Assembly (NCBI GenBank): GCA_964187785.1
Contig: OZ076419.1
Span: 39,122,001 to 39,186,000 of the forward strand
DNA length: 64,000 nt
Direction of reading: 5' to 3'
Source of the DNA: Amphiscolops sp. MND2022
Taxonomy: Eukaryota
Below, piece after piece: positions 3,001-55,123 of this stretch. A program made the translations under genes and the position numbers. Every line of letters begins with the position of its first letter. Within the stretch, counting starts at the first letter, position 1. The notes beneath the pieces are model-generated. The model did no database searches. It had not been told where the DNA came from and was given only the letters and a program-made list of their open reading frames with translations.

Positions 3001-3495
3001 TCTGAATTACAATACTAGTTATCATGCAAGAAATAGCTGCAACCAACTCGGGTATTCCATGGACGAGTTCCATACAATATCTCAGAACACAAGCTTGGAA
3101 ACAATCCAAACGAGCAAATTATACCTGCAACGGAATTTACTGAAGAAATTCAAAAACGAACGAAATTGCTCATAGACAAAACTAAACAAAATATATTGCA
3201 CTCCTACCTCAAAGACAAGGAGTACTATGATCGCAAAGCGCGAGCAGCTCCACTCAAGGAGAAAGATTATTGTTTTGTATTACAACCCAAAGCGGATCAT
3301 CAAGGGTCGAAAATCCCATTTAGGGATTACCGTTGGGTTGGACCAAATATAGTGCAAAAAGTGTTACCTAAGGAAAACTATATAGTACGCCGGCTCAACA
3401 CGAATAGAACCCAAATATTGCACCGTATTCGACTAAAGAATTTTGTTTCCGATCAACCGCTCGAAAAATTACAGCCGGATGAGGAACTTGTTTGA
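1..3495 (+). mobile_element. pol: Ty3/Gypsy LTR retrotransposon pol region (RT-RNase H-integrase), frameshifted pseudogene, 5' part outside window
   Basis: Consecutive + ORF fragments: RT (DIFARHRFDIG, SPMFAQ..KLRLLIDL, LAQGLSPALSAFS, YVDD degenerated to NVND), RNase H (MTDASF, SDNKAVT, HIPGTQNTAADNLSRL), integrase (HPGISK, QIDLLLNLPPSGGY, TDNRTAF), C-terminal RWVGPNIVQKVL..NYIVRR; many stops and frameshifts. Confidence 0.93.
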
Positions 3496-3854
3496 AGCAC
3501 CTATTGCAACTAACTTGACGAATGGCGAGCAGAGCACGTTACGTCAAACGACGAACCAAGTGACACAGACGAGAATGAAGTTGATTATATGACAACACGA
3601 GACGGTCTGAAAGTTTTTCTTCTCAAGTCCCATGGCACTATGTTCTGAAAAACTAATGGGACATCTCGCCAAATCCCTTTCAAAATAAATACAGGGATCA
3701 ATGACAAACGGAGGCATGAATACGGGCAACAAAGAGGATGTATAAATAGAAACAAACTGGCAGGAACTAGATACAAACAGAAGAAAATTGAAAAAGTTTT
3801 GTGAGTGCACATAAATACATATGTACACTTAGAATTAGAAGAACCTGGTACTTT

Positions 3855-10885: not shown

Positions 10886-11085
10886 NNNNNNNNNNNNNNN
10901 NNNNNNNNNNNNNNNNNNNNNNNNNNNNNNNNNNNNNNNNNNNNNNNNNNNNNNNNNNNNNNNNNNNNNNNNNNNNNNNNNNNNNNNNNNNNNNNNNNNN
11001 NNNNNNNNNNNNNNNNNNNNNNNNNNNNNNNNNNNNNNNNNNNNNNNNNNNNNNNNNNNNNNNNNNNNNNNNNNNNNNNNNNNNN
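10886..11085. other. Assembly gap (200 N)
   Basis: Run of n characters. Confidence 0.99.
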
Positions 11086-11225
11086 AACTCTTTAAATAGA
11101 CCAAGTATAGATTTTCATACCAATAATTTAGGTTATTTCCTTCAATTTGAAAAATTGTAGAAGAGGCATCTGCCAGGGCAGATTTTTTTCGAACTCTGGA
11201 CATGGAACAAAGTAACCAATAACTC
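11086..11225 (+). repeat. Possible LTR 3' end plus primer-binding site
   Basis: ...gaactctggaCA followed directly by TGGaacaaagtaacc (11203), the CA|TGG arrangement of an LTR/PBS junction; matching tRNA not identified. Confidence 0.25.
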
Positions 11226-14981: not shown

Positions 14982-15003
14982 CATTACAGTGCATCTGCAA
15001 GCT
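14982..15003 (+). repeat. Left terminal inverted repeat
   Basis: cattacagtgcatctgcaagct; TTTTCTG(T/A)GCGT also shared just inside both ends; subterminal TTGCGGAA/TTCGGAAT at about 15093, 15117 and 15162. Confidence 0.85.
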
Positions 15004-15539
15004 AAATCGCCACAGACACTTTTCTGTGCGTGTATGTCCTCCGATTCCGCAGACATGTCTTAAAGCGTGTAAAATTGGCAACTTAGCACTGATTTTGCGG
15101 AATCCACGCCACGAATTTTTCGGAATCCGTGGGCATGGGTTAATACGTTAGCTGGTTTCAAATTGCGGAAACTGGGACCAAAAAAATATGCCGACAAATG
15201 CCAACACGATGCCGCCAAATTCGTGTCTTGGATTCCACAAAGTGCATTACAACCAATCAGATGCCTGCAAATTTTAGCGTCTTAGTTTCCACTTACATTT
15301 AAATTAGCTGAAATCAAATTTATTAAGCCAGAGAGTAAATACAAAGTCAATTTACACAAACAAGTTACAATCAATGTCTCCCTTTCCGTAAAACTGTCGG
15401 CTTCTCTTCCTTTCATCTATACTATACTATACTACTATATTATGGTACTACAATTATACCAACTGCATTTGAATTTGAAAAAATGAAATTTGAAAATGAA
15501 TTTGAAAAAACGAAAAAGGAAAATTTCTTTCAACACTTT

Positions 15540-15966
15540 ACTATAGTGGAAAATATTTATACTGATTGTATATAGTGATATACATTAGTGAAATACATTC
15601 ATACCAGCTAGAATAAATTAAATTAAAAATAAAATTTTTAGTTTTAAAAAAAAGTGGAAATCGGGAGATTTTGGTTCCAATCGTGGATCGAATTGTGAAG
15701 TTGTTTAGATAAATAAAAATAAAAATTTGATTGAAATAGTCAATTAGAATGCAATTGAAAAGATTCAGGTTACGTGTACTATACTTAACTATAATGTTCA
15801 CTATACTACATCATATCGGAATATTTTTATACTACAGTGATACACAAGAGTGAAATACTACATTTATACTGGAATAATTTTTAATTTATACTGGAAAATT
15901 AAAAACTTATTTGAATAATTAAAGTGGAGAAACGGGGAGATTTTGGTTCCAATCGTGGGTCGAATC
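15540..15966 (+). repeat. Degenerate ~270-bp direct duplication
   Basis: Both units contain agtgatatac/agtgatacac, agtgaaatac and aaagtgga..gggagattttggttccaatcgtgg.tcgaat (15669 and 15941). Confidence 0.6.
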
Positions 15967-16282
15967 TGAGCAAAATTAATCAATATCTATTGGACGGTCA
16001 ATAAATTATTGCAAAAACTAATTTTTAGAAAGCTTTTCACTATGAATAATTTATTTATGAAGAATTTATGAAAATAATAAATAAAATAATTTATTAGTTA
16101 TGTAATATATACCTCAATTTATTTTTTAAACAAGTCTTACAATTATTTATTGGTTAGTTTTAGCAATAAAATTACCTATTGTATCGTATCAATAAATATA
16201 AATACAATATTGCGCACCCCTGATGATTGTTATTGCCTTATCGGTCATCGCTTGAAAGTTCACAGTTTCAACCGTGGCTTAC

Positions 16283-16446
16283 CAGCGTCGCGTATCAGCG
16301 GCTCGTATCAAAATCATAACTGTTACAATCGTGAGTATTTTCCTTGCTAATCAGCGGCGCGTAACAGCAACTCGTATCAAACATGACTGTTCCAACTTTG
16401 GGTGATTCCTATTGGCTAATCAGCGGCTCGTATCAGCGGCGCGTAT
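16283..16446 (+). promoter_or_regulatory. Three tandem pairs of a 13-mer CAGCGGC(T/G)CGTAT at 69-bp spacing, upstream of the ZnF-JmjC gene
   Basis: Pairs start at 16283, 16352 and 16421; about 210 bp upstream of the ATG at 16655. Confidence 0.55.
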
Positions 16447-16654
16447 CACGCATATCAACTGACCGACCGGCAGTTTTCATTGTCAACTTGTTTTCCTACC
16501 GTTCAGACTGTACTGTTAACTGACTCTCTCAATCTCATTAACAAGCCAAATCTTAGAATCTCTCATTAACAACTCAAAGTATAGCAGACACCCAACAGCC
16601 AGCAGCCGATAAAACCCTCAGCTAATCAACGGATATAACCCGGAGCCAATCATA

Positions 16655-19600
16655 ATGGTAAGTTGACTTATTCGTTTTCGGAAATAAATTTTTGGTTGAA
16701 AAAATGTCTATAAATTGATTTTGGTTATGGATTTTTTAAAGATTGGTTCCAAGCTTGGGCCAAATGGAATCCCCAAGAAGATCAGATCAAATAATATGAG
16801 AATGAAAACTTCAAAAACAAACTAGAAAGGTTTTGAATTCACAGAAAAAAAGTAGACACTTTTATGCCCAAAATCTTTCACAATCCAACAATTCTCTTGA
16901 TTTCTACTTGTTTCAATTTTAATCCCAAATTCCCAGGAACTGTTTTTGGATTTTATAAGGAAATTATCAGTTTAAAATCAACTGCCCCTTTGGGTCGTTA
17001 TAAAAGCACCGTTCTGTAATTGATTTTACAATTTAGAAACAGATTCTGGTTCAATGTTTAGGGCAGTTTTTTCTAACAGTGTCCTGATAACTTTCAAATT
17101 GTTTTACGCAGATTCTCTCCCAAAAAATGTTTGTTTAATGATATAATTTTATACTTGTTTAAAAGTTAATTTATGAAACTTTTGTTTAATAAATACTGGG
17201 GGACTTAAATCGATGGGGGGATGAACCGGAATACTTTTTTAAAAGTTAATTTATAAAACTTTTATTTAATAAATACTGGGGGATTTAAATCGATGGGGGG
17301 ATGAACCGGAATACTTTTTTAAAAGTTAATCTATAAAACTTTTGTTTAATAAATGCTGGGGGACTTAAATCGATGGGGGGATGAACCGGAAAGATCCAAA
17401 CTTTCTCGTAAACAATTTTGTCTTTGTTATTTGAACTAATATAAATTTCATGATATTTGCTCTTTTAGAACTCATATTTTCAAATTGTTACAGCCGAAAT
17501 CGAAGAAAACACCTGCAAGTACTTCTGAGCAAGCTGCCGGACCCAGCGGACCCAGCACTTCGCAGAATTTTAGATCCCGCAAGGACTCATCTGACTCATC
17601 ATCAGAACTGTTCCTTGGTAAGTTGTTAATTCCTGAGTTACTTTTTCTTGACTATCAGTGAAATAGGTCAAAAAAGTATCAAACTGCTGAAACGGGTAAC
17701 TTCAACTGCGAATGTGAAACATGTTTGAAGTTTTGATGAACGTTTCTTTACTTTGTTCTGGTTTTATTTGTATTGAAATTTTGAGGCTGTATGAACAGGG
17801 GTGTTCAAAAAAAGGCGTTTTTTATTCTTTAGAACAGATTTATTTATCTTCGTTTGCAGAATTGAAATATGCCATGGTAATTATGGTAAAAATTGGGGGC
17901 GTCTTTCAACTTTTTCCATTAACTCAGTACTTCGAATCCATTATTTGATTCCATTAATTGCCAATAATTTTCACGCAAATATGGCCCGAACACCCCTGTG
18001 TATGAGTCTTCATTTTTTGTATATATTTTCATCTTTGTTTTATTTATCAGGTCATCTCTGCACAATCGGTGCTTGCGACAATTATGCCCAAACTCGAGAA
18101 GCCCTTTCTGTTCATGCCCGCACTTGCCCTGGTTTGTCAGAAAACCAATAATGACAACTCTGCGACGAATTTCGAGATACGACTCCGCCACCTAAAAATT
18201 GTAAGACTTCCATTTACTCGTTCTTGTACTCGTTTTGACAATTCCAATTGACAAGCGACAATATCCTTTTTTGTAATTGAAAATGGATTGATAAAAAGTT
18301 TGACAAATCAAACATCACGTGGATCACTATATCATGTACACCATTTTTCAAAGTTTTGAGCAATCTAAATGAAACCTTTCAATTTTGTAACTCGTGGAAA
18401 ACGATCTGATTTTGGTATGTATTTTGTATGTATAGGTATGGTTTTTTATTTGAGTTCTTCATCTCGTATAATTCAAAAGGCTATGTTTAGGTTTCCCGTG
18501 TCCGAATTGCGACTACGTTGCTGGAAAAAAATGGCACTTAACCCGTCATCGTCCAGGATGCAAAAGTGTCAGCAAGCAGGAACAAGTTGCGCAGAATTTG
18601 ACGTGCGAGAAATGTGGTCAGATTTTCACGACCAAAAAAAGTAAAGAGCGCCATCAAAGGAAAGCCAAATACTGCACGAAACAACAAGAAAAGATTGCTG
18701 CTGGAGAAGAAGTCAGAATGTACCAATACCGTTAGTGTTCAGATTGTTTCCAGGATTTTGTTTGTTCATGTTTTGAAATATTTTACGGTCTTGAACCGAT
18801 TGTCGTATGCAATAGAAAAAAGAAGGAAAATGTTTTTCTGGTGTGAAAAGGAAGGTCTAAAAAACACAATTTTTCGGAAAGGATTTTGGTTCCAATCATG
18901 GGTCATACCATGAAAGCATTCATGAAATCTTTGGAAGATGTTTGGTTCCAACCATGGGTCATACTAAAATGGAAATTCATGAAAGAAAAGGTTTTGGAAA
19001 TTCATTTGAAAAAATGTCTTTGAAATTACAGAAGCTGCGAGAGGAAAAAGAAGAAGCCGTCACTTCTGCGTTTCGTGTGGGACCTCATTCGGGTACGGGT
19101 ACAGCCTGAGGAACCACATCGCGAGATCAGTCAAATGTCAAATTGCCCAACCACCGATGCCACTTGATTTGACATTCAATTCTGGGACTCCAGTGGCCCC
19201 ATTTGGCACCCAAGAGCACTTCGCATTCTGCGAAAACGTGCCTCTGGAATGTCGATTTTCCTACGCTGAGTGGCAGGGTCCCCATGACAATCAAACCGAA
19301 CACCTGGGTCATCTTCTTCGACATTGTGTCCCTTTGATTTGGAGAAATGGAGCCAAGCAGAGGACTGAAAGTCCTAAAAGTCTCCGCGAAAAAAGACTTC
19401 GTCGCGGAGATCAAACAGCTTCTGCGACCGGTCAACCTTGCTGAACCTGATGCTCCAATTGAAGTCAAGTCAGCCAGAATCGGAGAGGTAAAAACACTTT
19501 TTACTCGTTTGAACCATGTTTAGCATTTAGTAAAAAACAAATTTAGTTGTTCCAAAACACAAACCAATGGTATACCCCTTCAAGTGAGGTTCTGCAATGT

Positions 19601-21700
19601 ATTAGGATTTGTATTTGTTTTCACGCCATGTGTTTAAAGATATGGTCTTGTTTTCCGCATTGCATTCTTTGAGTAAGTCAATTCAAACTTAAAACCGTGG
19701 AAACTAGGACATTCATGGTAACGCGCAATAATGTGTATACCCCTTTGAGTGAAAGTTCGCTATGTATTAGGATTTGAATATGGTTTCCACGCCATGTTTT
19801 CAAAGATATAGTCTTGTTTTCCGCAATGCGTTCTTTGAGCAAGTCAAGTTATACTGAAAATCCGTGGAAACTGGGACAGTTATGTCGAGTTCGTTTTAGT
19901 ACCAATCCAGGGCCGATCTACCTGTGGTGACAAGTACACTGTTGATAACATGAATCAGAACCTTGCCTAGCATCATCATTTAATAGATGTTTTAACAGAC
20001 ACGAGAAATGACGTATGAAAAATTTTTCGGGGAGCTGGCCAACTGTCATCCAGGCAGTCGATATTACCCTTTAAACGTCATCGATGTCAGGACACTCCCC
20101 AAGGCCATATACACAGTACCCGAGATGGTGGCTGACAACTCCATCAACCATTTGGCCGACAGGGAGATCGGGAAGTCGAGAACTGAGCCTTACTCTTGTT
20201 CTACTTCCTATTATGTCCTGGTCACTCAAGATTCTGCGCACACGACGTGGCATCAGGATTTTTCTTCGACGTCTGTGTTTTACACAGTTCTAACTGGAGA
20301 GAAGATTTTCTTTTTAGTGAAACCGTCGAAGAAAAATGTCAGCATTTTTGAAAGATGGTCGAATGCTGAGAACAACACTACGTAAGTAACAAAACTTAAC
20401 TAGCACACCAACTTTATTGTCTTCAAGAACACTGTTCTATTTTCAAAAACAAACAACTATACTTTTTGACTATTATTTTTTGGTGATGGAAAACAACAAG
20501 CAAGCATTTAACATCTCTTTTCAAATAATTAAACTTTTCTTTTAGTTTTCTTCTATTAAAGTCAAAAAATTAGAAAAGCAACTTCGATGTACTTTCAGGC
20601 CAACATTCTTCGGGAACATCGACCAGCTGGAAGAGGGATGTTTGCGGTTGCATGTCACAGCTGGAGATGTTCTAGTCATGCCCGCAAACTTCCTCCACTT
20701 TGTTCTTACGAAAGGCAATGCCATTTCGTCGGGAACAAACTTCCTGGCGTTTGGGCACCTGCCCATGATAAGACACTCAATCATTGTTGAGTTCCCGAAA
20801 AGATCCGATGACAAGTTCCCTGATCTTCCAGAGATGTTGGTACTTCTGATGTACCGTATTGCCGAAAAGCTCTGCCCTCGACTCTGTCGACGCCTGGTGT
20901 CGATGTACAGCACAGTGCAATCAAAATACAATGAACACGCCGCCCGTGAAGTAAGATTGTTAAGCCTTCAGTCTTTGTTTGGTAACAAAACTTCAATTTT
21001 CCATTTTTCCATTTTCCATTTTCAATCATTTCCATTTTGGTTCCAATCGAGGGTCATTTTCTAGTTCGAAAACTTATGTTTATGAACAAGTCTTGCTTTT
21101 TTCAAGACTTCAAAACACATATTGGTCATTTTCTACATTCATGTCTGACTGATATACACGCAAGTAAAGCACAACTGAGTGAAATTTTGTGCTTCTACGT
21201 CAATAAGTTTATAATAAACAAGAACATTACCATAATAATTTCGTTTTTTTTTCAATTGAAGGTTTGCTCTCCAGGTTGAAAGTTTGATTTTTACGTTTTA
21301 CAGGTGCTACCCGATTTCAGTCCTGAAAGACTTCACATCGTATTGTGCAAAAAAAGCCTCAGTGACACTGCGTGAGCCACCAAGCAGCAGCCGCAATTAT
21401 TTGAGCGAGCATCCCGAAAAGAATACTGACCCCAGTAAGGCTCTTACTGTTCCAGAGCATGTGCCCATCGCTGTTGACCCCTACACGAAAGCGTACGAGG
21501 AAGTAATGACGACAACGGATTTACTAGAACTCGAATCAAGACCCGCAATGATGATTACCCATGTTAAAGGCAGGGGAAGAACTGTCTTGCCGGCAAAGAT
21601 GGTAGATCCATCTTTGCACCCGAAACGCTGTCCTCTTGTTGCTGCTATTACGGGAATACGCTCAATCCCCCTTGAACTAGATATTTTAGATTTAGATTAA
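16655..21700 (+). CDS. Multi-exon C2HC zinc-finger plus JmjC histone demethylase (KDM2/KDM7-like), with a few frameshifts
   Basis: ATG|gtaagt at 16655; exons with CTIGACDNYAQTREALSVHARTC (18051), CPNCDYVAGKKWHLTRHRPGC and CEKCGQIFTTKKSKERHQRKAKYC (18491), CVSCGTSFGYGYSLRNHIARSVKC (19032); JmjC TTWHQDFSSTSVFYTVLTGEKIFFLVKP spliced in frame (GT 20382, AG 20598) to GDVLVMPANFLHFVLT..SGTNFL; AATAAA near 21738. Confidence 0.85.
17161..17390 (+). repeat. 80-bp tandem repeat, ~2.9 copies, intronic
   Basis: Unit aaaagttaatttat.aaacttt..tttaataaatactgggggac/tttaaatcgatggggggatgaaccggaatactttttt starts at 17161, 17241 and 17321. Confidence 0.92.
19560..19915 (+). repeat. ~165-bp internal repeat array 1 (inside JmjC-gene intron 19488-19970)
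   Basis: Core tgtattaggatttg..tggtttccacgccatgtgtttaaagat..gtcttgttttccgcattgc..ccgtggaaact.ggaca; period 165 (19598 to 19763). Confidence 0.9.
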
Positions 21701-21944
21701 ACTGTAGATTCAGATTTAGATTTTCAGCATCATACAAATAAATGACAAAAAATTGCAAAGTACCTGACAACCTGTTTTATTCAGTGACGAGCGCAAGAAG
21801 TTTAATTTGAAAACGAAATGAAAAAAAACCTCAATTGTTCAAAACATGCCTTGAAACATTTGGACGTCTAATGCAATAAATTCCAAAAAAGAATAATAGG
21901 AGAAAAATCAGGAGTATACCTCATGAATGAATTTCCGCCAGGTA

Positions 21945-22235
21945 AAAACGCAATGGAAACCAGGACATTTATGGTAACGCACAATCATGTGTATACCCTT
22001 TTGGGAGAAAGTTCGCAATGAATGTATTAGGATTTGTATTTGGTTTCCACGCCACGTGTTTAAAGACATGATCTTGTTTTCCGCATTGCATTCTTTGAGT
22101 AAGTCAGTTCAAACTTAAAACCGTGGAAACTAGGACATTTGTGGTAATGCGCAATCAATTTCTGGAAACCAAGACAAACGAAAGTTCGCCGAAACAGCGC
22201 CCAATATTGTGTGCTTTTTGATACCAATCTATGAT
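21945..22235 (+). repeat. ~165-bp internal repeat array 2 (between the convergent JmjC and transposase 3' ends)
   Basis: Same core (ggtttccacgccacgtgtttaaagac near 22042; ccgtggaaactaggacatt near 22121). Confidence 0.88.
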
Positions 22236-22360
22236 AAGTAAAACACTTCCTTAGTTTCGTAGGATCATCACAATAAACCTAATGAAAATATTTATTTTTT
22301 GAAGAATTTGTTGAATAGTTTCAAGTTCGGGTAACATATGAATTAGAAGAGAACAGTAAA

Positions 22361-25300
22361 TCAAAACGAAAGTTGTTTAAAAATGCCATCACGGTATCTC
22401 TTGGGAGCGACAATCGCAGATACACCTTCACCCAGTGTTTTTCCACTGCATTGGTCCAAAAACAAAGGTCTTTTGTCGTTGACACGATTTTCAACAAGTT
22501 TGGATCCGGGCTGAAGAATGTATGGCTCCGGGTCAAACAGCCTTTTTTTCTCGTCAACTTCGTATACAAAATCGATGTTCAAGAATTTGAAGCCCCCAGC
22601 TGCGAACCGTTTCGCTATTTTGGAATATTATGATGGTTCATTTCCACCCTCCCGTGTTGCTGATGCCCCTCTTTTCCTTAGTTTCTTCATATCGTTAATT
22701 GCCTCTGTGGAACCGGTACCTAAGATTAGGTCTTTTTCGTCCTTGACGAGAACAAAACAATTGGGGAGCTGTGAAAGGGTGCTCATCAACACGTCAGCTT
22801 GTTCATTTTCTAGAATAGTTCTTCCCATATTGATAATCACTTGTTTCACCATGTCATGTGTTAGAGTATGTTTTTTCCAACTACCCAAGCGACCAAGCAG
22901 ACAAAATCCTAATCCACTTAAAAGATTTTCTGGACATCCAATGGCGATAGTTGTTACCGGTGGTTCTTTGCGGCAAATATCAAGGTACTCAGGTCCCGGA
23001 ACGTCAATGCCCATCACTTTTGTTGCACTATGAAGTATACTCATTACGCTGTTTGAGGTACTTTTCGAAACTGTCTGATAGTTCTTTCTGTTTCCAGTCA
23101 CAATATGGTCATCAAAGTAAACCTGTGTTGTTGCGTTTTGTTCAGGTTCCATGATAATCTTAGAAGTTGGTTCAGCGTCCGACCCTTTGTCTTCAAATTC
23201 AACTGCGAATCTTAAAAATTTGAAGAAAGAAAAAAACGACTCGAGGAATAGTGGATGCTTGTGATAAATCTTACCCCCTCCGCGCATTGTTTTCGTCTGG
23301 AAGCCACGATTAGCTTGGTGGTTCGATTTTTCAAGACCTTCACACAAATGATCAAATGGTCTTTTTATGTATCCACTCTCAACAAGTTGAGGAAACATCA
23401 GCATTTTCAATTTATAGGGTGTCAAACCAGCATGCCCGAAGATCAAGATATTGATTTGGTAATAAACTTCAGCCCAATTTTTGAACGTTTCACTGTTGAA
23501 TTCTTCTGCTCGCAGACATAAAACACATTGATTTAAACTCGATCGCAGGAGTTCGCAAGCATCAAAAGCAGATATGAATATGTCATTGGACCCTTTTTGC
23601 TTGAGGTTATCTTTATTGAAAAGTTTAGGAAACCAGTTTGTTAGGATATTAACGCAAGGGACATTTGCGTTTTCTTCACTGCCAACAATGATATCTTCGG
23701 GACCCCGAAAACCATCGTAAAAATCGCTAATTTTACCGTCCTTCACACCTGCAAGCTCCTCTTTATCAGCAATGACTGCTAGAGCACTACCACCTGCGAG
23801 GGATACTGCACCTACAGTACCGATACACGAACCACTTCTATGAGATATAATGAACTGAAAGTATAGTCTCTTCGCATCTCTTCTTGTCAAATTTTCTTCA
23901 AGCTGGCGAATTGCTACATCATGATTGGGATACTTTTCTCTGATAATTTTCTGTGCAATTCTTTGGAGGTCATTTTCAACACAACGGGTGGTCATATGCG
24001 TGGCATCAGGACAAACTGATTGTATATTTTCGTAGAAGACCAAGGAAGATTTTGGAAGATACTTTCTGAAGGGTATAATAACATCAGATCGTAGACCAGT
24101 TTCATGATGACATTTTGTTGGTGTGTAGTCAAGTTCTGTTACATAGAGTGGCATTTTCGATGGGCTAGCTGATTCATTTGTGATACCGAGCACCAATTTC
24201 ATTAAAAACGGCGAATCGCCACTGTATGTCAAAATAACTCCGCGTTTTGACAGTTCCTGGGTCTTCATAAATAGCCAACCAGACTCTTGAACTCCAGCTA
24301 TAGTTGGCCCAATGTTTTGCTCCATTGCGAACCTACTATCTTTACCCCTGTATGCAGCAAAACAGAATACTGCATCTGATGATTGACACTTTATTTTGTC
24401 GGTAAGGATCCGGAATGCAATTCGTGTTGTTTCGACACCTCCAATTTCACAACCATATCCCCAAATATCAACTCGTTGGCCACTGAGTTCTTTCGTTCCA
24501 AATGAGAAGTATGACACCGTCTCCACGCATTTTATGAGGTTGCAGCGAAAACCAGAGAAGGTTCTTTCTGGCTCACACATTGCTGTAAAGTAGGACTGAA
24601 TTTCGGATGACGACTTCTTGACCAATCGAATGCATGGGACTAAGTTGTATCCGAGTCCAACAATTGAAAGTCTTGTTCGAATAACTTTTATAACATCTTC
24701 CGTGTTACCCGTTTTCGTGACAAGAGATAAATGGTGCCTGAACTCATCAGTAGATCCTCTTTTTTTGAATAGACCTTCTACAATTTTTTTGACTAAGTTT
24801 GGTTCCTCTTTATTTGTGAATCGTTGATCGTTTCTCTTATTTGCAGAGCTTTTGATTTTTTTAATGAAACTGTTGAACCCAACTTCTGACATCAGATCTG
24901 TTCTAATTGGACCAGTTTGTTCATGTTTGACTTTTTTGGCGTCTGATATTTCTAGCTTTCTTTCTTTTGAGAGAGAATTGTCACTGACTTGACCTTCAGG
25001 GGCCGCATATTCAGGAGTCACATCTGCAGGTGTCGCAAGAGTGTCTTTCATGTAAGGATTGTGATATGGTATGACATCATTATTGAAAAACAAACTGACA
25101 AACTCTCTTCTGGCTGAGTTCCAAGGGAAGTCTTTAAATCCACGCAGTTGAAGTAGTTTTGCCAATTTTGCTGCTATAAATACAGGGGGGTTTTCTGGCC
25201 TTTAACAGCAATTCTCCGAAAGAATTCTTTTGGATTTAAATTTGTCTCCGTCAACATTTCCCCAACAAGTGTCTCGAACTTCCGAAATTTATTCGGTATT

Positions 25301-25398
25301 TCTTTTCCGGATATATCGTCAAAAAGTCGACAGTTAGCGAAGAGTTTCCCATTTTCCACTTCGATATTATTTCTTTCCAAAATTGACAGTGGAGTCAT
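22361..25398 (-). CDS. RAG1/Transib/Chapaev-like DDE transposase (~920+ aa), disrupted
   Basis: 845-aa ORF joined to the upstream 74-aa ORF by a 1-nt indel in a C6 run (25185-25190). RAG1-like motif order: RVDIWG[Y]GCEIGG (D1 position), AYRGKDS, LTYSGDSPFLMKLVLG (D2), CPDATHMTTRCVE, LTPYKLKMLMFP, CEGLEKSNH (E). Frameshifted tail at 22361-22582. Confidence 0.72.
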
Positions 25399-25819
25399 TT
25401 CTAAAGCTGGTTTTTAGGTTTATTGCAAAGTGAAATTGTATTGATTGTAGAACAGTTTTCAGACTGACAACCTTTCCATACAATAAAATGAAATGCAATT
25501 AGATACACAAACCCACAAGTAAAAAGAGTCCGGTTTTGAGTCTCTTCATTAAACTGATGAAGAACGGTTCAAAAAATTCGATAATTTGAGTTCATATCAC
25601 CCAAGGCCATTTTGTCAATAATCACAATAAGATGCAAAAGAGTCCTCCATTAAATCTTCTCACTCGTACTTAGAAGTTTTAACTTCTTAGGACTGTTTGT
25701 TTCTTCTTTGTAAAGTGTTATCTGCTTGAAAATACTCAAAAGGTGTTAAAAAAGAAAAACAAAAACTGTTTGAATTTTTTCTGAAAACCATGACTACACC
25801 CATTCGAATGAAACTGAGC

Positions 25820-26320
25820 AACGTATTAGTACTTGTGCTTGGTTTCCACGCCATGTGTTTAAAGATGTGTCCTTGTTTTCCGCAACGCTTTCTTTGAGCA
25901 AGTCAATTTTCACTTAAATACCGTGGAAACCAGGACATTTATGGTAAGGCGCAATCCGGAGTCTGCATACACACATACCCCTTCGAGTGAAAGTTCGCAA
26001 AGTATTAAGATTTGTATTTGGTTTCCACGCCATGTGTTTAAAGAGTTGGTCTTGTTTTCCGCATTGGATTCTTTAAGCAAGTCAAATTATACTGAAAATC
26101 CGTGGAAACCGAGACGAATAGAATTGAGCAATGCATTACGATTTGTGTTTGGATTTCATGCCACGTTTTTTAAGATGTGTCCTTGTTTTCCGCATTGCTT
26201 TTCGGCGCAAATCAAAGATGCTGAAAAAAAATGGAAAACACGACAAGTAAAATCCCGGAAATAGCTGAGATTGTATCATTTTTGGTACCAATCAGGGGTT
26301 AATCTATATGTGACAAATGC
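25820..26320 (+). repeat. ~165-bp internal repeat array 3 (upstream of the transposase)
   Basis: Cores near 25840, 26020 and 26148; followed by tttggtaccaatcaggggttaatcta. Confidence 0.88.
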
Positions 26321-26518
26321 CTTGTTGATCATATGCTTTCAGAATAAAGTATTTCGATAGTCTAAGACTTTTCTCATGAATTTTCAAGAATACAAGGTCA
26401 TGGAGCTCATATTGTAATAATTACTAACAATGATGAAAGATGAATTGTTGAACAAACAAAATATTATCAAACACGAATAGAAAAAGTTTTTTAAAATTTA
26501 GGTGTTTTTTAGAGTATT

Positions 26519-27929
26519 TCATGCATGTGAGACAGGTACATTCCGACTCAGATCTCTATTTTTGCTGTTTTTGTAGTGGCCTTGGCTCGTCAAAAACTGG
26601 AAACGAATCGTGAACATGCCAAATTCTCGATGTTCAGTGAACCTCATTGTCTTGATAAGAACATCTTCTCCATCGCTTGCGTGACATGGGATCATATTCC
26701 AATTTCTTCCAAGTACAGTATCCCATGTACCGTTGCACAACTTATGTCTCTCTTGGTTTGCAACACTATAATTAACGGCCTCTTTGAAATTGCCAGTTTC
26801 GAAGCCACAGAGTTTTTTTGTCATTGGGGTACAGGGAACTAATGTTGCGGTTAAGGAATGCTTCTTTCTTGAGAGTCCCGCCGTTCGTTTTATTGCAGAA
26901 AACAAAGCATAGGCTTGGTCCATTGGCTCCAGGAGCAAATTAAAATCCATTACATCGCCTTTAGAAGATGTTGTTGTGACAACACGAATTGTTGGGATGC
27001 GCACTTCAATGTCAGGGTCACTTCCGCTCTGCGTGAATGCACATGCTTTTCTCTTCTGAACATCATAGTAAACCTTCTGGATTTCAAAATCATCATTTGA
27101 GTAAGATGCAGTAGATCCCACCTGGAAATAAAATGATTGAACAAATATTAGGTGGGAAAAATACTTTGAAAAATTTGGTGCCAATCCAGGGTTATCAAAA
27201 TTCAAAACCAAAGTTTGTAAGAAAAAAGCAAGAAAACATTACCTTTATGATACCATTTTCACAGGGTGCGTATGTTAATGCAACGTCATCGTCAACATTG
27301 GGAAGCAAGGAAAGAATGTCGACTTGTGGCATCGGTTGTGTGGCGCTTGTCACACGGGCTTGCTTTTTGACGAATGGGCGATGTACGTCAGATCCTGATT
27401 CTTCATCTTGTTCAGTTTCATCAATTTCTGGTTCAGTGTCTCTTACACAAGGTTTATTTCTTAGTTGGCGATACAAAACATACTCATCATTGTCCTCCAC
27501 GTCGGTTATCAAACATTGTTGACAGAAAGGATCATTAATTTTTACCCAACCCATCACAACTGACCCGCAGCAACGGTCCTCTTGGCATCTTTCGCTATCT
27601 ACACAATTACATTCTGGTTGTCAAAAGTGAATTTGATCGTTTCTGACCAGTCGACGAGCGTTGTAGCTAAGTGGGGTTGACCGTCTTTTGTTGCTCACAG
27701 TTTCTTCGCGGACAAGATTGTGGGATTTTCTAATGTTCCAGTTATATTTTTCAGGTCTGTATACTTCGGGAACAGTGATATCTTCTTTTTTATTGTAAGA
27801 CCAATCGACCCATTTAATTCTTACACACCAATCGCTCACAAAGGAAATTCTTTTCGCTGATTCCCAAATTGATGTCGCAGGATCCAAGATTTGCACAACT
27901 TCATTTTCATAGAAGGTTTGGAGAAGCAT
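26519..27929 (-). CDS. Two-exon gene: N-terminal Tudor-like barrel, Cys-rich segment, unknown C-terminal domain (one internal stop)
   Basis: FYENEVVQILDPATSIWESAKRISFVSDWCVRIKWVDWS; in-frame TGA at 27621-27623, then CNCVDSERCQEDRCC..DPFCQQC; GT-AG intron 27122-27242 in phase 0 joins ENGIIK to VGSTASY of the 230-aa ORF. Confidence 0.6.
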
Positions 27930-28309
27930 TTTTATTTTAAAGCTCGAAACTAATAGAATGTGTAGACAACTTATGTGGTGAAAGTTGATGGGATGAGCGT
28001 TAACGAAGACGATAACGAGATTGGTTGCAATCCAAATTAATTACAGCTAATCGTCACCTAATTACCGAGCAGTTGCACTAATAAGAATAATTGCAAATTG
28101 AAGACACTAGCCTCGTTCCGAAAAAACGCTTTTTACATGCCTCATTTAAGATTGAGGTTTTTGGTTGCACAGCCGGATATGGCACTACAAGTTACCAAAT
28201 ATCAGATATTATCGTAATTCATATCAACAAATATTCGAAATATACAATCATTATCTTGAAATCGTCTCTGAAAATCAGACCGTCAAAATAGAAAATCGAA
28301 CTTTTATAA

Positions 28310-31011
28310 ATGGAACAAAACCAAACCTCGCTGCATTTGACGATGCCCCCAATTCCAACACCGGTTTCCGCGGACATGTCTACGCCTCTGACGTTAACCC
28401 AAATGCAAACTCCTTCTGGTTTGTTCACGCCCATGGTATCGCCCGTGATGTTTAGCCAAACATCCGGCGGGCAACTCAACAGCACTCCGTTCCGCCTCCA
28501 AGAGCCACCTGAATTCAGCTTCAATGAGGATGGAATAATAACGGAACAACTCCCGACTGAAGCTGAAGAGGTCATAAACGAGTTTTTAAACATTCAGAGC
28601 GAATTACCAGCTGAGATTATAATTCCTCCAAAACAGTTGAATGGACATGCAAGCTCCGATAATGTAGTAAGCAAACGTCCAATGCCCCCACCAGTTGATA
28701 TGGTAAGTGTAGTAAAACTTCTGAAAAGATATTGTTCAAATTTTGCGTTCGAAACATGGGTTACGTTTCCTAGAAACCAATGTACTTTTTAATTGCTGGA
28801 GGATGCGTTATCAGTTTTAAAGATAATAGGGACACTTTTTGAAAACTCTCCCTTTTTTAGACTGTTCCCGCCAAGAAGAAGAAGCCTGATTACAAAACGG
28901 ATACAGTGGAGTCCTTCATTAAAAGGACAAAAACAGAGAATGTATCGCGTTGCAGAAAGAGCACTCTGGCTACGAAAAAGGTCCAAATAGAGTTCTTTCG
29001 AAGTCTACTGGCGTACGTTCTAATTTTCTCGGGTTTTCTGGATCGGGAGGTCAGCAATGTGACTGTCCAAGCCGTGGCGCAGGCAGCAGTTCAGATGAAA
29101 GAATCCGACGACAAAAATTCCTCTTTCGGGCTTGAGATAAATGTAGCGGAGAGGTGCGCCAGAAAAACGTGCTACAATATCCCACGATGGTTATTGGAAG
29201 GCTTTGTGGACTACTTCGTGTTCGAAACGAGTTTCTGGACCACAGTGAGGGAACTCTTTTCGAAAGACTGCTGAGTGACACAGACAATCGGATCCTGTAC
29301 ACCGAATTGTTTTTTTGTGAACTCAGCTGGGAAATCCAACTTCCGACCTAGCCACGTTGTTGACCAATATATGGAGTCGGTATGTAAAAACAAATCATCA
29401 TCACACCCCCTTGAATAAAACAATTAGTAAGGATTTGTGTTCGGTTTTCACGCCATGTGTTCAAAGATATGGTCTTTTTTCCTCGAAGACTTTTAAAAGC
29501 GAGCCATTTTATACTCAAAAACCGTGCAAACTAGGACATTCATGGTAACGCACAATCATGTGTATACCCTTTACAGTGAAAGATCGCAATGTATTAAGAT
29601 TTGTATTTGGTTTCCACGCCATGTGTTTAAAGATATGGTCTTGTTTTCCGCATTGCAATCTTCGAGTAAGTCAATTCAAACCTAAAACCGTGGAAACTAG
29701 GACATTCATGGTAACGCGCAAAAATGTGTATACTCCTTTGAGTGAAAGTTCGCAATGTATTAAGATTTGTATCTGGTTTCCACGCCATGTGTTTAAAGAT
29801 ATGGTCTTGTTTTCCGCATTGCATTCTTTGAGCAAGTCGAATTATACTGAAAATTCGTGGAAACTGGGTCAATTTATAATGTAGAGCTAGTTTTTGGTAC
29901 CAATCGGGGGTCGATCTATAAGTGACAAGTACACTGTTGGTATCATTATTTCAGAATGCATATAGACACTATTCAATGTTTGCATCATTTCAAACAGGTA
30001 CTGAAACACTGTGATAGCCCGCTGTGGGAATTGGAACGGCACCTTCATGTTGTGTTGCCCATCGCAAACGACACTGAAGCAGTACTCCCTAAGTTGAAGG
30101 TCCAAACTAGAGCAATTTGGGCGACTCTGGACATTGCCTTGGACTACCAGGTCGTGCAGTCGGCAGTGAGAAGGCACCAGGATCGACAGAAATATGCCCG
30201 CCAATCAGCTCGTGCCCATGCTTTTTTCAAGCATATGAATGGGCAAACTGACCTTGCTTCGTTGGAAATGAGACTGAAGAGCTATTTCCAGCGACAGAAA
30301 TGGACGACGCAGAATGACGGCAAACAAGACCTGAGAAAAACTTATCTACTTGTGCTCCCAATGTTTATTACCCCAAAAGTAGAAACGAACATAGCAATTC
30401 AGAAGATTTATTACAAAGGATTGGCAAGCAATATGGAGTTTGAAGATCAAACTTTGCTTATGGAGAGATGTCGATCTCATAAATGGCCCGGAATCACGCA
30501 GGTTTTTAGCCAGTTTGGAAGAGGAATCATTGCCACCCGAGTTTTCCAGAAAAATGAAGTCGTCATTGATTACCACGGGCAGGTTTTCCTCAAGACATCA
30601 ATGGACGAAGTATCCGCCATTGAAGGTGTTAAACGGGAGTTTTGTCTGGAAGTCAAAGGACCTGGCCGAAGCATAATCAATGCCTCCGCGGAAACGTTTC
30701 CTGTCCACCCTGATAGTAGATGTGTGGGTCGCCTTGCCAATCACTCAGTTTTGGAAGCCAACATGAAGTCCACTGATGTCATTGTGTTTGCCGACAACAA
30801 TCAACGTTATGTTGACCTCCGTGCATGTAAAACAATCCATCCCTTCGAACAGTTAATGTTCGACTACGGGGATCCGATAGCTCGCTCTGAGTTTATTGAA
30901 TCACAGTCAGGAAGCAGCTCTGGAAACACCAGCGGTCGCTTCAGCGGTAGTCAAGAACCACGAAAAGAATACAGTGACAATCTTGCAGATGAATCGGAAG
31001 AGGAAAATTGA
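28310..31011 (+). CDS. SET-domain lysine methyltransferase (SETD8/PR-Set7-like) with long disrupted N-terminal region
   Basis: SET motifs GRGIIATRVFQKNEVVIDYHG (30514), GRLANHS (~30727), QLMFDYGD (30862); upstream ORF pieces 28310-29420 are separated from it by a repeat-filled GT-AG intron (~29427-29954). Confidence 0.85.
29420..29940 (+). repeat. ~165-bp internal repeat array 4 (inside SET-gene intron)
   Basis: Cores near 29443, 29609 and 29775; followed by tttttggtaccaatcggggggtcgatcta..gtgacaagtacactgttg, as in array 1. Confidence 0.9.
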
Positions 31012-32154
31012 AGAAACGAACTTTCATTCACAAACTTTTAGACTTTTGTGGCATTGGCTCTATTGTGCGTGATTGTTTAAAATGGTGTTACTCAGTTTCA
31101 ACTGGAACCTTATTGAGATTAGAGTGCTGACGAAAGCTTGAACTTGACTTTAAACCATTTCAAATTCGATTTTGGAACACTTGCAACGCTATTCAAAAAA
31201 TTATGTTTGATTTGAAGAAGTCAATTTTTTTGTAATCCTAAATCACATTTGAGTGCAACAATTGTTTCAATAAACTTCACACCAAACGTTACATCGGAAG
31301 CCCGTTGATAATTAGAGTTTAAAAAAACGTACTTCGAAAAAATACAAAATGTACAAAGTTTACAAATGAAAAATAAAAACGCAACTGTTATTGAGGTTTT
31401 GGGAAAAAAAGTAAAATTTTTGGTTCCAATCGTGGGTCGAGTTCTGATGCTTCAATTCATAAATAACAAAATCAATCGAAAAATTTGCGTTTTTGAATTT
31501 GATTTAATATAGCGAGTCTTCTCAGACATTCTCAGACAGGATGAACTGTCAGACAGAAAAAAGGGATTCAGTAGCGCAGTGGATCTTCAATTAGGCCCTC
31601 CAAAGTCTTTTACCGGATCGATCTGGTGGAAGACAGAGTTGTCTGTATAGAATCGCCCTGCAGAGTGTTTTGATGGGGATCGATCCGGTGACAGACTACG
31701 CCTCAAGCTTCACTACTCGCCTTATCAACTGCGCCACCATCTCCGTTATGCCGTTGCATAGAACACATCTATAAACTTTTGTTTGATGAACTTGATCATG
31801 AACCACTGGGTCGTCATCAAAATGGCAGATAGAATGCAAGTGAAGAGATTTTGGTTCCAATTGTGGGTCGAATCGTCATAATTCAATTGTTTAGTAGAGT
31901 TGAACTTCGGAATAGATTACTTTCAGAATAACGTAAATCTCGTAGTTACGTAATCGTTTGTCGTGACCTATCAAAAATAGTATTCTATCAACGTGATAAT
32001 TATTCAAGGCAGCATGAAGGACTGCATAAAATCGCACAACGAGCCCGGGTTGTTGAGAATGCGCATTAAAGCGCATTATCGAGCGAATATACTGCTCTAT
32101 TTGACGCAGCGAAAGCATTTAGTTTATTAGCAAATAGATATCGTTCAAAAAGAA

Positions 32155-32227
32155 GACCCGTTGGCCAAATAGGATGCGCGCTAGCTTTCCGATCGTGAGC
32201 TCGTGGGTTCAGATCCCGCTAACGGCA
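32155..32227 (+). ncRNA. tRNA-like sequence (pseudo-tRNA or SINE head)
   Basis: A-box-like TGGCCAAATAGG, T-arm GTGGG-TTCAGAT-CCCGC, partial acceptor pairing CCGTTG/TAACGG; anticodon stem poor. Confidence 0.45.
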
Positions 32228-33193
32228 ATTATTTAGAAATGAGAGATTAATTTTTTTCTATTTTTACCATTGCTTGTATTACAAATAGCCTTGAAAAAAT
32301 GCAAAAAAAATCGCCGGTTTGATACCGTTTGGTAATTTGATTAATTAATTATTGTTCTTTTCCAACCAACGCTTAATTTTGAGATCTTCCTGAGCATTAT
32401 AGCCTCTATTGAATAAAGAATTGACACCTTTGTTTCCAACCGAACTTTAGATACCGAAATCTACAGTCTTATTATATTAGAAAAGAATTAGAAAAAACGC
32501 TTACGGATCTTTTCTGTTAATTCCCCCCACCTACGTTTTCCACTTCAGTTAGGCGGTCGAGAAAAAATATCATTGAATTGATAGTAACAATCAATCAAAT
32601 AGCAGTATTTTATAATTCTACTTCATCGCTGATAGTGGTGGGGTTATAAAATTTCTGCGCATACTGCGGGGGGAAGGGTTTGCGGGAGATTTAATGGAAA
32701 AGACCATCTTAATAAAAAAGCTTACTTTTCTACCAATTGTAATTGAAAAAAATGAAAACTTTAATGAAATAATTGGTTTGAAACTTGGAGATTTTTCGGT
32801 TCCAATTGTGGGCCAAATCATGAAGCTTCATTTAACAGAAGTTTGTTTCCAAGCATTATCATTTGTAGCAATTTTCATCTGATTTCAAAAGATGAAATGC
32901 GGAAACATATTATAATTGTTCCGGAATGTAGGTGTACGAATTACTCTACTGAATAAAATTCTGGAATCTGAGACACGTTGCACTATTTGCTTTCTACATA
33001 ATTGGCGCTATTAAGGCCTGGCATAAGTGGCAATTAATTGGCCCCATTAACTTGCGAAGACACAAAATTGCGGAAAGTAAGATTTCAACTTCAAAGCAAG
33101 CTAAGGCAGTCGACATCAAAGGGGAATGAATTCAGTGCGGGCGTCTCGGTTTCCGAGATTTTGTGTCCTGATTTCCGCAAAACGCTCAGAAAA

Positions 33194-33215
33194 AGCTTGC
33201 AGATGCACTGTAATG
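33194..33215 (-). repeat. Right terminal inverted repeat
   Basis: agcttgcagatgcactgtaatg is the exact reverse complement of the left TIR; subterminal TTGCGGAAA at about 33067 (+) and 33172 (-). Confidence 0.85.
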
Positions 33216-36649: not shown

Positions 36650-38101
36650 TTTCCATTATCCATACAACTACAGGGGTATCAAAAAATAATTGCAATTATT
36701 TGAAGACATGGCTTCGCAAAAAATCAATTAATTTTAATTGCAAATGTTTGCAAATCAAAGGATTTTTAGCAATTAATTGCAATAAATTTTCACTCAATTA
36801 ATTTTTGATACCCCCTGCACAAACAGCGCGCGTAAATCATGCACATGATGAACGCAGTTATCATACAAACCGAGTTTGGCAGAAGGTACCCCTGTTGGTC
36901 ATTTTTATGGGCTCGATAATTGAAGGGGTTGTGAAAAAAGTATGATGAAGCTAGCATCTCAAATAAAATACAAAATTGAAAAACAAAAAAAAACTTTTTT
37001 AATTCATAATGGTACATAAACTTGCAGACGAGTTTTTTAGTCGGCGCAGTTTGTAAAAAATGTGCCACATGATTACAATGACTAGTTAGGACCATGTTTC
37101 TTATTTCCTTTAGGTACGCCTTGTTTCTTATTTTCTCCTTACACGAAAAGAACTTTTTTGCTTCAAAAAACTTCTTGGACGAATGGAAGAAACTGATATG
37201 GCAATAAATTTTCAGAAGATTGTCTCTAGAATTGTTTCCACCCTTGCAGCAAAAAATTACCCGAATTTTTGACATGTTTCTCAGAAAAGAAGCAGAAAAT
37301 CGCCCTCGGAACAAGCGAAAATCGTCAAGCAAAGCCATTTTCTAGCGTAGGATAATGTGGATCTTTTAACTGAATCATTGTAGAGAATAGCATTACGTCT
37401 ATATCAATTTTTCCATTGGGCCGAAATTTCATCGCAAATGATGTCGAAATAATGGTATTTGAACCTCGTTTCTTATCCGCCATCTCCGCTTGGGGTGCGT
37501 GTTGGGTTGTGTAATTAGAAACATGGTCCCCTAGTTATTTTTTAACCAGAGAATGTAAAACTACAGAATGTACGCGAACGGTTCACTTTCCAACGGAATA
37601 TGTTTACGCCGCCAGTAGTTTGTTTGCAAACCCTCAAAAATTTTTCTTCAATTCGGGTAGTTTTGCTTTCCTTCATGAGAAAAGTGTTTTTTTTTGCGAC
37701 CGTGAGCCTTTCTAAAACACTTTTAAAGTGTTTCAAGAGCCACCTTGAACAACTGTACGAAACTTTTCAGTTTTTGAGTTGGGCCGACTTGTTTTTTTTT
37801 TGTAAACAACCACAAAAATGCGCAACTGTCTGAAAAAATTTTCTGTGAAAATTTTCCTTGTCACTTTAGTCGAAATTAGATCTTCTATACCTTCTATTTT
37901 GAACTTCGAGCATAAAAAACTGAAAAACTGTGCCATGTTTGAAAACATCTTCGATGTCAGAAAGTACTGTGAGTTGAAATGGAAAATATTGTCAATGATT
38001 TGAATTACGTTTGATGCTCATCACGCTCCAAAGATTTGCGCCTAGTATTTCGTCTGCAAGGTATTCCGCATTCACAAGCTTTACAACGTCCCTAGATACT
38101 A
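36650..38101. mobile_element. ~1.45-kb interspersed repeat, copy 1 (inserted in gag)
   Basis: Collinear and highly similar to 43356-44791 from tttccattatc.a.acaactacagggg to cgtccctag.tac.ac. Confidence 0.9.
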
Positions 38102-54953: not shown

Positions 54954-55123
54954 AACAAATGAGCTTCAGACAACAAATGGAAATCGGGACAGTTTGAAAA
55001 GTTTTTTCATTTGTTTTCGCTAGATACTGTTGTTAGCCAGTTGTTTTACCCTGTAGTTTGTATTTTAAACTAGTGTACCGATGATGTAGCGATTTCATTT
55101 GTTTGAAGCTCGGTCTTTTTCTT

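Follow-up and report, generated by a model that had tools for sequence, protein, structure and literature searches.

A transposon-borne gene joining zinc fingers to a KDM2/KDM7-like JmjC domain in Amphiscolops, with a candidate target motif in the element's own non-coding DNA

It is much clearer how hosts silence animal transposons through chromatin than how the transposons resist. Among JmjC proteins, KDM2 enzymes carry CXXC, PHD and F-box domains and host KDM7 enzymes an N-terminal PHD finger, which directs the enzyme to H3K4me3, and neither type has a C2HC array; in Arabidopsis REF6, the fingers are C-terminal and the enzyme is KDM4-like. REF6 provides a described case of a JmjC enzyme aimed at a DNA sequence by zinc fingers, of which it has four (PMC12264921, in the part used here). 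For transposons, the closest described system is VANC of the Arabidopsis VANDAL elements, a transposon-encoded factor whose targets are family-specific short motifs in non-coding DNA (introns, intergenic stretches and termini) that vary together with the protein; it has been shown experimentally in plants to remove DNA methylation by an unknown route, and the available part of the study leaves open both the sequence-reading part and the mark-removal step (PMC5735166). Finally, endogenised giant viruses of Amoebidium carry a KDM4-like JmjC gene that is parasite-borne, contains introns, lacks host reader domains and was proposed to act in counter-silencing (PMC11244446, cited portion).

We analysed a window of 64,000 nucleotides from Amphiscolops sp. 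MND2022 (contig OZ076419.1), in which comparison with other copies delimited one element:

14982..33215, no strand assigned: whole DNA transposon copy of family A, decayed, 18,234 bp (~18.2 kb)
14982..15003, + strand: left terminal inverted repeat, 22 bp, starting CATTACAGTG, from end comparison and matches of its 19-bp core
33194..33215, - strand: right terminal inverted repeat, 22 bp, from end comparison

Similarity to other copies begins and ends at these boundaries, and the flanks differ between copies. The 19-bp core of the left inverted repeat has 351 exact matches in the genome (control, 0), a 2-bp target duplication accompanies 17 of 20 end pairs, and the flanks of the window copy (at/gt) are one mismatch away from such a duplication. 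Matches to the element were found on all 13 large contigs, with pairs of copies up to 99.8-99.9% identical. The genome holds at least ten diverged families, and the same four genes (fingers-JmjC, transposase, a third gene and SET) recur in families A, B, C, H and I. The element is a cut-and-paste DNA transposon, and the fingers-JmjC gene is its cargo, laid out in the window as follows:

16277..16453, + strand: 13-mer repeat cluster upstream of the start codon, its core in families A and B only
16655..16657, + strand: exon 1, ATG only, with a GT donor kept in A copies; predicted from sequence
17494..17617, + strand: exon 2, low-complexity N-terminus, from the splice model
18051..18200, + strand: exon 3, finger 1 (family A only), with two in-frame stops at 18149-18154 in the window copy
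18491..18730, + strand: exon 4, fingers 2 and 3 (Pfam zf-C2H2, E 3.5e-6)
19032..19487, + strand: exon 5, finger 4 and the first portion of the JmjC module, with a 5-base deletion near 19358 in the window copy
19999..20381, + strand: exon 6, the core of the JmjC domain, holding T-x-x-H-x-D, Tyr and G-x-K (PHF8, KDM7A and KDM2A matches)
20599..20950, + strand: exon 7, distal His, conserved Asn and helical extension (KDM7 homologue E 0.0026, KDM2A 0.006)
21304..21700, + strand: exon 8, C-terminal tail, with a 2-base deletion near 21348 in the window copy
about 18059-18127, 18499-18561, 18604-18675 and 19067-19138, + strand: fingers 1-4, by pattern

The preliminary description had reported four C2HC fingers in successive exons, spliced in frame through GT-AG introns to a JmjC domain. 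Four fingers are indeed present, in three exons rather than four, and all seven introns are GT-AG, but "in-frame" was wrong for the window copy because, spliced at the sites conserved in sister copies, its frame is broken by two stops and two frameshifts. Owing to the deletion in exon 5, its entire JmjC domain is out of frame with the fingers; the bases missing near 19358 are present at 19/19 other loci. Cryptic splice sites able to bypass these lesions exist on paper and differ from the conserved ones. We tried to model nine sister copies, of which one was not projected and eight were modelled; a single open frame was found in four of the eight (one of these with GA at the first donor) and also in one family B copy and one family C copy. 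The predicted protein ends ~160 residues past the helical extension in a tail with no Pfam match. The eight-exon fusion is genuine for the family, and the window copy is dead. The preliminary description had named separate transcripts for the finger and JmjC exons as a case against itself. The broken frame of the window copy might suggest such an arrangement, but in 15/19 loci exon 5 encodes both finger 4 and the beginning of the JmjC module in a single frame, and intron positions and phases are conserved across A, B and C, leaving this explanation scarcely credible.

Searches with the JmjC core matched PHF8 (E 1.1e-11), KDM7A (1.6e-10) and KDM2A (1.1e-6). The T-x-x-H-x-D, G-x-K and distal His noted earlier were borne out residue for residue against PHF8 and KDM7/KDM2A: the H-x-D..H triad, Thr, Tyr, Lys and Asn, which in JmjC enzymes serve the Fe(II) and 2-oxoglutarate cofactors, lie at the aligned places of PHF8 and a KDM7 homologue and are kept in A, B and C. 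Alignment to PHF8/KDM7B, KDM7A, PHF2 and KDM2A covers both the catalytic core and the helical extension. Unlike these, the transposon protein lacks the KDM7-type N-terminal PHD, having three or four CCHC fingers there instead, and lacks the CXXC, PHD, F-box and LRR that follow JmjC in KDM2; the Pfam JHD profile gave no match on the transposon copies. In a quick tree of 117 rows with long branches, for which 38 of 149 hits were left out as too short or motif-less, 58 canonical rows and the host gene formed one branch (SH-aLRT 99), with the transposon rows outside both KDM2 and KDM7. Because of this placement, any substrate is borrowed by likeness only.

Outside this genome, searching longer proteins for homologues of the JmjC exon yielded a single mis-called fragment among 36 candidates, and of the viral contigs searched, eight stretches fitted a pattern and none was related. 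Relatives were encoded by 7 of 55 metagenome stretches, all on contigs of 1.1-2.7 kb without readable neighbours, so that these relatives are only putatively mobile. A cluster look-up of 10 relatives returned no names, and no close family turned up at E 1e-28.

Could the gene be passive cargo, either a captured piece of host KDM2/7 or a host gene, useless to the element? The broken window copy and four broken copies of the eight modelled speak for such a reading. However, the fingers-JmjC gene is under purifying selection across families, judging from substitution patterns: between A, B and C the JmjC core is 76-82% identical, with differences at 7-9% of second against 52-65% of third codon positions, while the fingers are 53-74% identical. 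This already largely refutes the passive reading, and catalytic residues are retained in all aligned families. Judged by its helical domain, the host's own KDM2/7-type gene exists in one copy, and it lies in the canonical clade, apart from all transposon copies; of its introns, one nearly matches an intron of the transposon gene and one is a codon off. The other case raised against the preliminary description, a conserved host gene, thereby fell away, the architecture being transposon cargo. We regard the passive reading as very improbable.

All four fingers follow C-x2/4-C-x12-H-x3/6-C, and in 4/4 the second Cys and the His are 12 residues apart, as in DNA-binding beta-beta-alpha zinc fingers. 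Finger 1 is missing in family B and degenerate in family C, and families H and I have different fingers. The earlier suggestion that the element's own repeats are what the fingers recognise gained indirect support only for TTGGTTCCAATC, which proved to be part of a longer TTTG-N11-triplet site that covaries with finger 2, and not for the 13-mer or the 166-bp repeat. These features lie in the window as follows:

15670 (GGA), 15942, 18885, 18941, 19895, 21036, 26281, 27174, 29893, 31419, 31850 and 32795 (span 15670..32812), + strand: candidate target sites TTTG-N11-GGG, all outside coding sequence
19566..29884, + strand: 166-bp repeat, present nine times in intronic and intergenic DNA

Picked on positions 1-12, the window element has 14 sites, 14/14 non-coding, 13 on the + strand and 11 with GGG at the end, and the 45.8 kb of the window outside the element contain three matches, none with GGG. 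Eight families (A, B, C, L, M, N, O and P) have the dispersed non-coding motif, and coding matches hold 3 of 103 sites against ~24 expected from coding shares. In family C, sites also occur as pairs arranged head to head. The motif was absent from families H and I, was not recovered around the decayed copy Q1 and was not the top motif in R2 and S1. As for the rejected candidates, the 13-mer core occurs at only one place in A and B and not at all in eight other families, its cluster probably being a promoter distinct from the dispersed motif; the 166-bp repeat contains no TTTG-N11-triplet site, and one copy of the unit (+ strand) has no more tendency to fold than shuffled sequence (z -0.13).

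The last triplet of the sites picked on positions 1-12 differs between families, being GGG in A (10/14) and B (13/19), GAG in C (11/14), M (17/18), N (5/5), O (12/12) and P (5/6), and GAT in L (14/15). Finger 2, at +6, +3 and -1, is Arg-His-Arg in A and B, Arg-Asn-Arg in C, Arg-Asn-Lys in M, N, O and P and Arg-Asn-Val in L, so that the triplet tracks the finger as the zinc-finger code predicts (G by Arg/Lys/His, A by Asn/Gln; PMC12264921, relevant part). The best of 46 placements of motif against code scored 0.86 and the next 0.54. Permutation gave 120/5040 for finger 2 (the minimum possible), 40/5040 for finger 3, 2/5040 for both together and 1236/5040, not significant, for finger 4, where family O is off its pattern; these figures overstate independence because the family tree, a small one leaving out B, O and P, has no more than two changes of finger 2. 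The motif register and the placement of finger 3 were picked after the data were seen. With each of the two changes of finger 2, the base that the code points to changes, and in the direction it calls for, and the prediction for family P was made before its motif was searched for. A single P copy carries Asp at +3, which the code would pair with GCG, yet its sites are GAG; 7/7 further readable P copies have Asn. Finger 3 fits the strand opposite to finger 2, an unusual geometry with a linker of 14-17 residues, and base-relabelled codes fit it equally well or better. The covariation of fingers and motif in the manner of the zinc-finger code, as read from sequence, is the new part of the finding.

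FOG-type CCHC fingers bind proteins, and the fingers here might likewise bind protein or RNA, with the motif bound by a host factor or by another protein of the element (transposase, SET N-terminus or third gene), and the code match a coincidence among related families. Compatible with this are the linkers, which at 14-17 and 30 residues are long and unlike the short canonical ones of tandem arrays, the small number of independent finger 2 changes and the best PDB match of the exon 4 fingers, the spaced finger pair of the R2 retrotransposon protein (E 4.6e-4). Nevertheless, both changes go the way of the code, the best placement stands far above the runner-up, families N and O retain fingers and motif where no transposase was found nearby, and CCHC fingers of like spacing occur in the DNA-binding proteins CTCF and ZBTB7A (PMC12264921, in the part cited). 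We consider protein or RNA binding improbable and DNA binding by the fingers quite likely.

The three other genes of the element occupy its right half:

22628..25201, - strand: transposase with a RAG1/Transib fold and a C-terminal BRCT-like domain, truncated in the window
26519..27941, - strand: third gene, with an N-terminal Tudor-like barrel (candidate) and unknown domains, homologue in five families
28310..31011, + strand: SET-domain gene (Pfam SET, E 3.2e-10)

The transposase frame has 1017 codons in intact copies, and in the window a Tyr replaces a conserved Asp at 24455-24457. The transposase profile matched no PDB sequence, and with a structural model (pLDDT 55) all ten Foldseek hits under E 0.001 were RAG1, followed by Transib and ProtoRAG. 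Its acidic residues are conserved, and 21 homologues show neither a conserved C-x2-C nor an H-x3/4-H pair ahead of the last Glu. The third gene had no Pfam match; for its family I homologue, Tudor domains topped the model search, the best at E 0.059 and none under 0.001. All 14 PDB matches of the SET gene were SETD8 (SETD8/KMT5A), the best at E 2.6e-5.

These neighbours raise an alternative in which the fingers address the element's own motif and the JmjC enzyme is the eraser in a private circuit whose writer and reader are the SET and Tudor-like proteins, with H4K20 or a non-histone protein such as the transposase as substrate; the circuit would time transposition or repair instead of countering host silencing. 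Five families carry the SET, Tudor-like and JmjC genes together, the transposase ends with a BRCT domain, the SET domain is nearest SETD8, and PHF8 erases H4K20me1 (PMC11417953, relevant portion). Yet the Tudor assignment is weak at its best E value, nothing ties the JmjC domain to H4K20, and around the N and O copies neither SET nor transposase was found within 20-40 kb, so that the JmjC gene can exist without either. Such a circuit seems to us possible but unlikely.

We lean towards the reading in which the fingers bind the dispersed motif in the element's own non-coding DNA and the JmjC enzyme of intact copies, like PHF8/KDM7, would take repressive histone methyl marks off that element, leaving it active. 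With a sequence address in place of the PHD, the effect would stay within one transposon family. Demethylase activity on histones appears likely; by analogy, it is rather likely that the enzyme takes off a repressive mark, for instance H3K9me1/2, H3K27me2 or H4K20me1, the substrates of PHF8. We hold evenly balanced the broader proposal of a self-addressed epigenome editor on animal DNA transposons, comprising a zinc finger-JmjC protein, fingers and motif co-evolving in each family by the finger code and its own methyl writer and reader, with a wide unnoticed radiation on mobile elements of other eukaryotes. It would be a transposon-side mirror of the host KRAB zinc-finger strategy, and the hundreds of motif sites spread by the elements could also steer the enzyme to host genes. 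With reader, enzyme and target sites within one element, eight natural variants and a predicted residue-to-base key, the idea is testable.

DNA transposons with chromatin-mark enzymes have been described, among them TET/JBP-carrying fungal elements, SET-carrying HarbingerS/MuDR and the CMCT clade (Kojima 2025, PMC12730594); in the available part of that paper JmjC is nowhere mentioned and TET cargo comes without a described sequence address. Like CMCT elements such as ESTA and Plavaka, the present element has CA..TG ends with inverted repeats, a duplication within their 2-5 bp range and a transposase of the RAG1/Transib DDE fold by predicted structure. It differs from the CMCT transposases of that account, which have C(2)C and H(3-4)H motifs placed after the second D and ahead of the last E, in lacking both, for which reason we describe it as working like, without filing it in, a named superfamily, and in having an extra BRCT domain; the group may already be named in Repbase Reports or the supplements of PMC12730594. 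The Amoebidium giant-virus genes, in the portion of PMC11244446 cited, are of KDM4 type with JmjC only, lacking the fingers and target motif of the transposon gene. Whereas REF6 is a host gene with C2H2 fingers (PMC12264921, part cited), the transposon gene has N-terminal spaced CCHC fingers and a KDM2/7-type core and is carried together with its candidate target sites. Closest is VANC, in that these families too carry family-specific non-coding motifs varying with the factor; compared with VANC as described in the cited part of PMC5735166, the protein here, which belongs to an animal and to a RAG1/Transib-fold element, would combine zinc fingers with a histone-demethylase-type enzyme of its own.

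The finger-JmjC gene is carried by a transposon, a copy of which (family A) occupies the following interval:

14982-33215, 18,234 bp: transposon, family A copy; likeness to other copies begins and ends at identical bases, with unrelated flanks

The inverted ends are 22 bp long and start with CATTACA. Of 20 end pairs, 17 show a 2-bp target duplication; in the other three, the window copy included, the duplication is one base off. Searched against the 1.07-Gb genome, the end core matches exactly at 351 places (control, 0), and the JmjC exon yields at least 150 matches (150/150 scored, of 1407 candidates), at least 52 of them at ≥80% identity. Copy pairs of families H, I and M are 99.8-99.9% identical over 19-20 kb (G000:C1:6284-6304 kb, C1:26450-26469 kb, C3:76825-76845 kb), and therefore these families moved recently; family M has more than 100 JmjC matches in the genome. 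Short non-autonomous derivatives (loci L069-L081), from 178 to 8,545 bp in length, still have the two ends and the 2-bp duplication.

The preliminary description reported four fingers in successive exons; there are indeed four, of the form C-x2/4-C-x12-H-x3/6-C, upstream of the JmjC domain, but they are spread over three exons. Fingers 2-4 form the conserved set, finger 1 being peculiar to family A. The JmjC core aligns with PHF8 (E 1.1e-11), KDM7A (1.6e-10) and KDM2A (1.1e-6), and keeps Thr, His, Asp, Tyr and Lys at the aligned places, the distal His and Asn lying in the next exon, so that the cofactor residues are intact as described. In our eight-exon model all seven introns are GT-AG, although splicing of the window copy is not in frame as had been proposed: it carries two stops (18149-18154), a 5-base deletion near 19358 (the five bases are present in 19/19 other loci examined) and a 2-base deletion near 21348. 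We took nine full sister copies and modelled eight, of which four have open frames of 706-709 residues, one of these with a GA first donor. Hence the fusion exists in the family, but the window copy is dead. Finger 4 and the first part of JmjC share a single exon and frame in 15 of 19 loci, which argues against separate transcripts. Intron 1 contains three 80-bp tandem copies (17151-17391), fewer in sister copies.

The gene is neither a host gene nor a passive one. A Pfam helical-domain profile search of the genome returned one locus, of five candidates, that is a canonical KDM2/7-type gene. A quick 117-row tree (38 of 149 matches dropped; long branches make its deeper shape unsure) places this separate locus with 57 canonical proteins (SH-aLRT 99). 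Outside that branch lie all the transposon rows and also about 50 divergent JmjC proteins taken from other records (among P0039-P0151 and P0175). Among the divergent proteins we noted P0175 and P0049, the latter starting with the same CCHC finger type. Comparison of families A, B and C gives 76-82% identity for the JmjC core, where 7-9% of second and 52-65% of third codon positions differ, and 53-74% for fingers 2-4; dN/dS between A and B is 0.09-0.15.

The earlier suggestion that the fingers read the element's own repeats gains indirect support for the TTGGTTCCAATC motif, whose triplet tracks finger 2, but not for the 13-mer of the probable promoter clusters of families A and B or the 166-bp repeat, rejected as targets since their pattern is unlike that of the motif. 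TTGGTTCCAATC is the middle portion of a longer site, TTTG-N11-triplet, a register common to the family-specific versions recovered by motif search. Picked on positions 1-12, the 14 sites of the window element are all non-coding, 13 on one strand, and 11 have GGG at positions 16-18; outside the element (45.8 kb) there are three matches, none with GGG. The 17-base form has 522 genome matches (control, 0).

Motif triplets and finger 2 helix residues (+6, +3, -1) by family
A, B: GGG (10/14, 13/19); R-H-R
C: GAG (11/14); R-N-R
M, N, O, P: GAG (17/18, 5/5, 12/12, 5/6); R-N-K
L: GAT (14/15); R-N-V

According to the available text of PMC12264921, helix positions +6, +3 and -1 read the 5', middle and 3' base, G being read by Arg, Lys or His and A by Asn or Gln. 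Consistent with this code, the middle base is G where finger 2 has His at +3 and A where it has Asn, and the 3' G disappears where the -1 residue is no longer basic. The finger 2 placement scores 0.86, the best of 46 (next, 0.54), and is reached by 120 of 5040 family permutations, the fewest possible, with only two independent changes behind the test. Finger 3 fits opposite-strand positions 9-7 (40/5040; jointly with finger 2, 2/5040), its placement and the register having been fixed after the data were viewed and relabelled codes fitting equally well; the placement of finger 4 is not significant (1236/5040). Before the motif search in family P we had fixed a prediction of GAG from one copy and of GCG from another, with Asp at +3; the motif found was GAG, and all seven further readable P copies have Asn at +3. 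The motif is absent from families H and I, and none was recovered in the surroundings of Q1, a decayed copy. Of the 103 sites, just 3 overlap coding matches, where about 24 would be expected, coding shares being underestimated for distant families. Family C motifs (L098, L255-L257) frequently form head-to-head pairs 42-46 bases apart, and the same loci include one decayed region with 30 sites in tandem blocks.

We infer that an intact copy would produce the finger-JmjC protein, that fingers 2-4 would bind the family's own motif, and that JmjC would take a repressive mono- or dimethyl mark off nucleosomes close by, so that its own family would stay transcribed and mobile, with other families and most host genes left unaffected. 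A sequence reader would thus replace the PHD finger that aims PHF8, an eraser of H3K9me1/2, H3K27 methyl and H4K20me1 in the portion of PMC11417953 consulted. We regard this self-addressed anti-silencing mechanism as reasonably probable.

Its main rival keeps the address and places the JmjC enzyme in a private circuit with SET and Tudor-like proteins. The element's SET gene is nearest to SETD8, and the N-terminus of the third gene may be a Tudor barrel, a lead from a structural model (best E 0.059); transposase, SET and third gene all keep long open frames in two sister copies. The four-gene set recurs in families B, C, H and I (transposase identity 33-70%), and L, M and P have JmjC, SET and transposase; in N and O, neither SET nor transposase was found beside the finger-JmjC gene within 20-40 kb around copies. 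We consider such a circuit rather unlikely and prefer the self-addressed eraser; none of our results links this JmjC to H4K20. In the SET F-D-Y motif (30850-30870), families A, H and I have Phe, as does the top PDB match; a Phe change in this motif of SETD8 allows higher methylation states. The predicted transposase model (pLDDT 55) matches RAG1 and Transib, with RAG1 accounting for 10/10 matches under E 0.001; the window gene (22628-25201) is shortened and has lost a conserved Asp. A C-terminal BRCT domain is present (Pfam BRCT_2, E 3.7e-6 in family H, L188:8159-8830; 3e-4 in family I).

The window also holds decayed Ty3/Gypsy remains (135-3500, 55100-63600), another such element bounded by long direct repeats with a spacing of about 6.7 kb (36673-38093 and 43380-44790), and a run of N (10890-11090). 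Antisense to gag-pol, envelope-bearing Ty3/Gypsy elements contain another kind of JmjC-like frame (window 52979-53452 (+), L204:430-1194, L205-L206 region), which, as observed, makes them a second class of mobile element carrying a JmjC. The L204 frame matches Pfam JmjC (E 3.6e-7); that in the window has H-x-D and G-x-K, with no Pfam match.

Transposons with TET or SET enzymes (PMC12730594, in part) and KDM4-like genes in endogenised giant viruses (PMC11244446, in part) are already published; our search of literature other than Repbase Reports, subscription journals and supplements found no transposon-borne JmjC. Should binding and activity hold, this would be an animal transposon equipped with a sequence-addressed chromatin eraser of its own, a reading to whose full form we give about an even chance and for which finger-motif co-variation provides a testable key. 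The element agrees with the CMCT clade in ends, target duplication and fold but lacks the C(2)C and H(3-4)H zinc motifs of the named CMCT groups, and its transposase lineage is possibly unnamed. Its JmjC differs from KDM7 and KDM2, being a member neither by domains nor by tree. It resembles REF6 in joining zinc fingers and JmjC in one protein (PMC12264921, available text), and VANC, as far as the available part of PMC5735166 describes it, in that the motifs are family-specific, lie in non-coding DNA and evolve with the factor.
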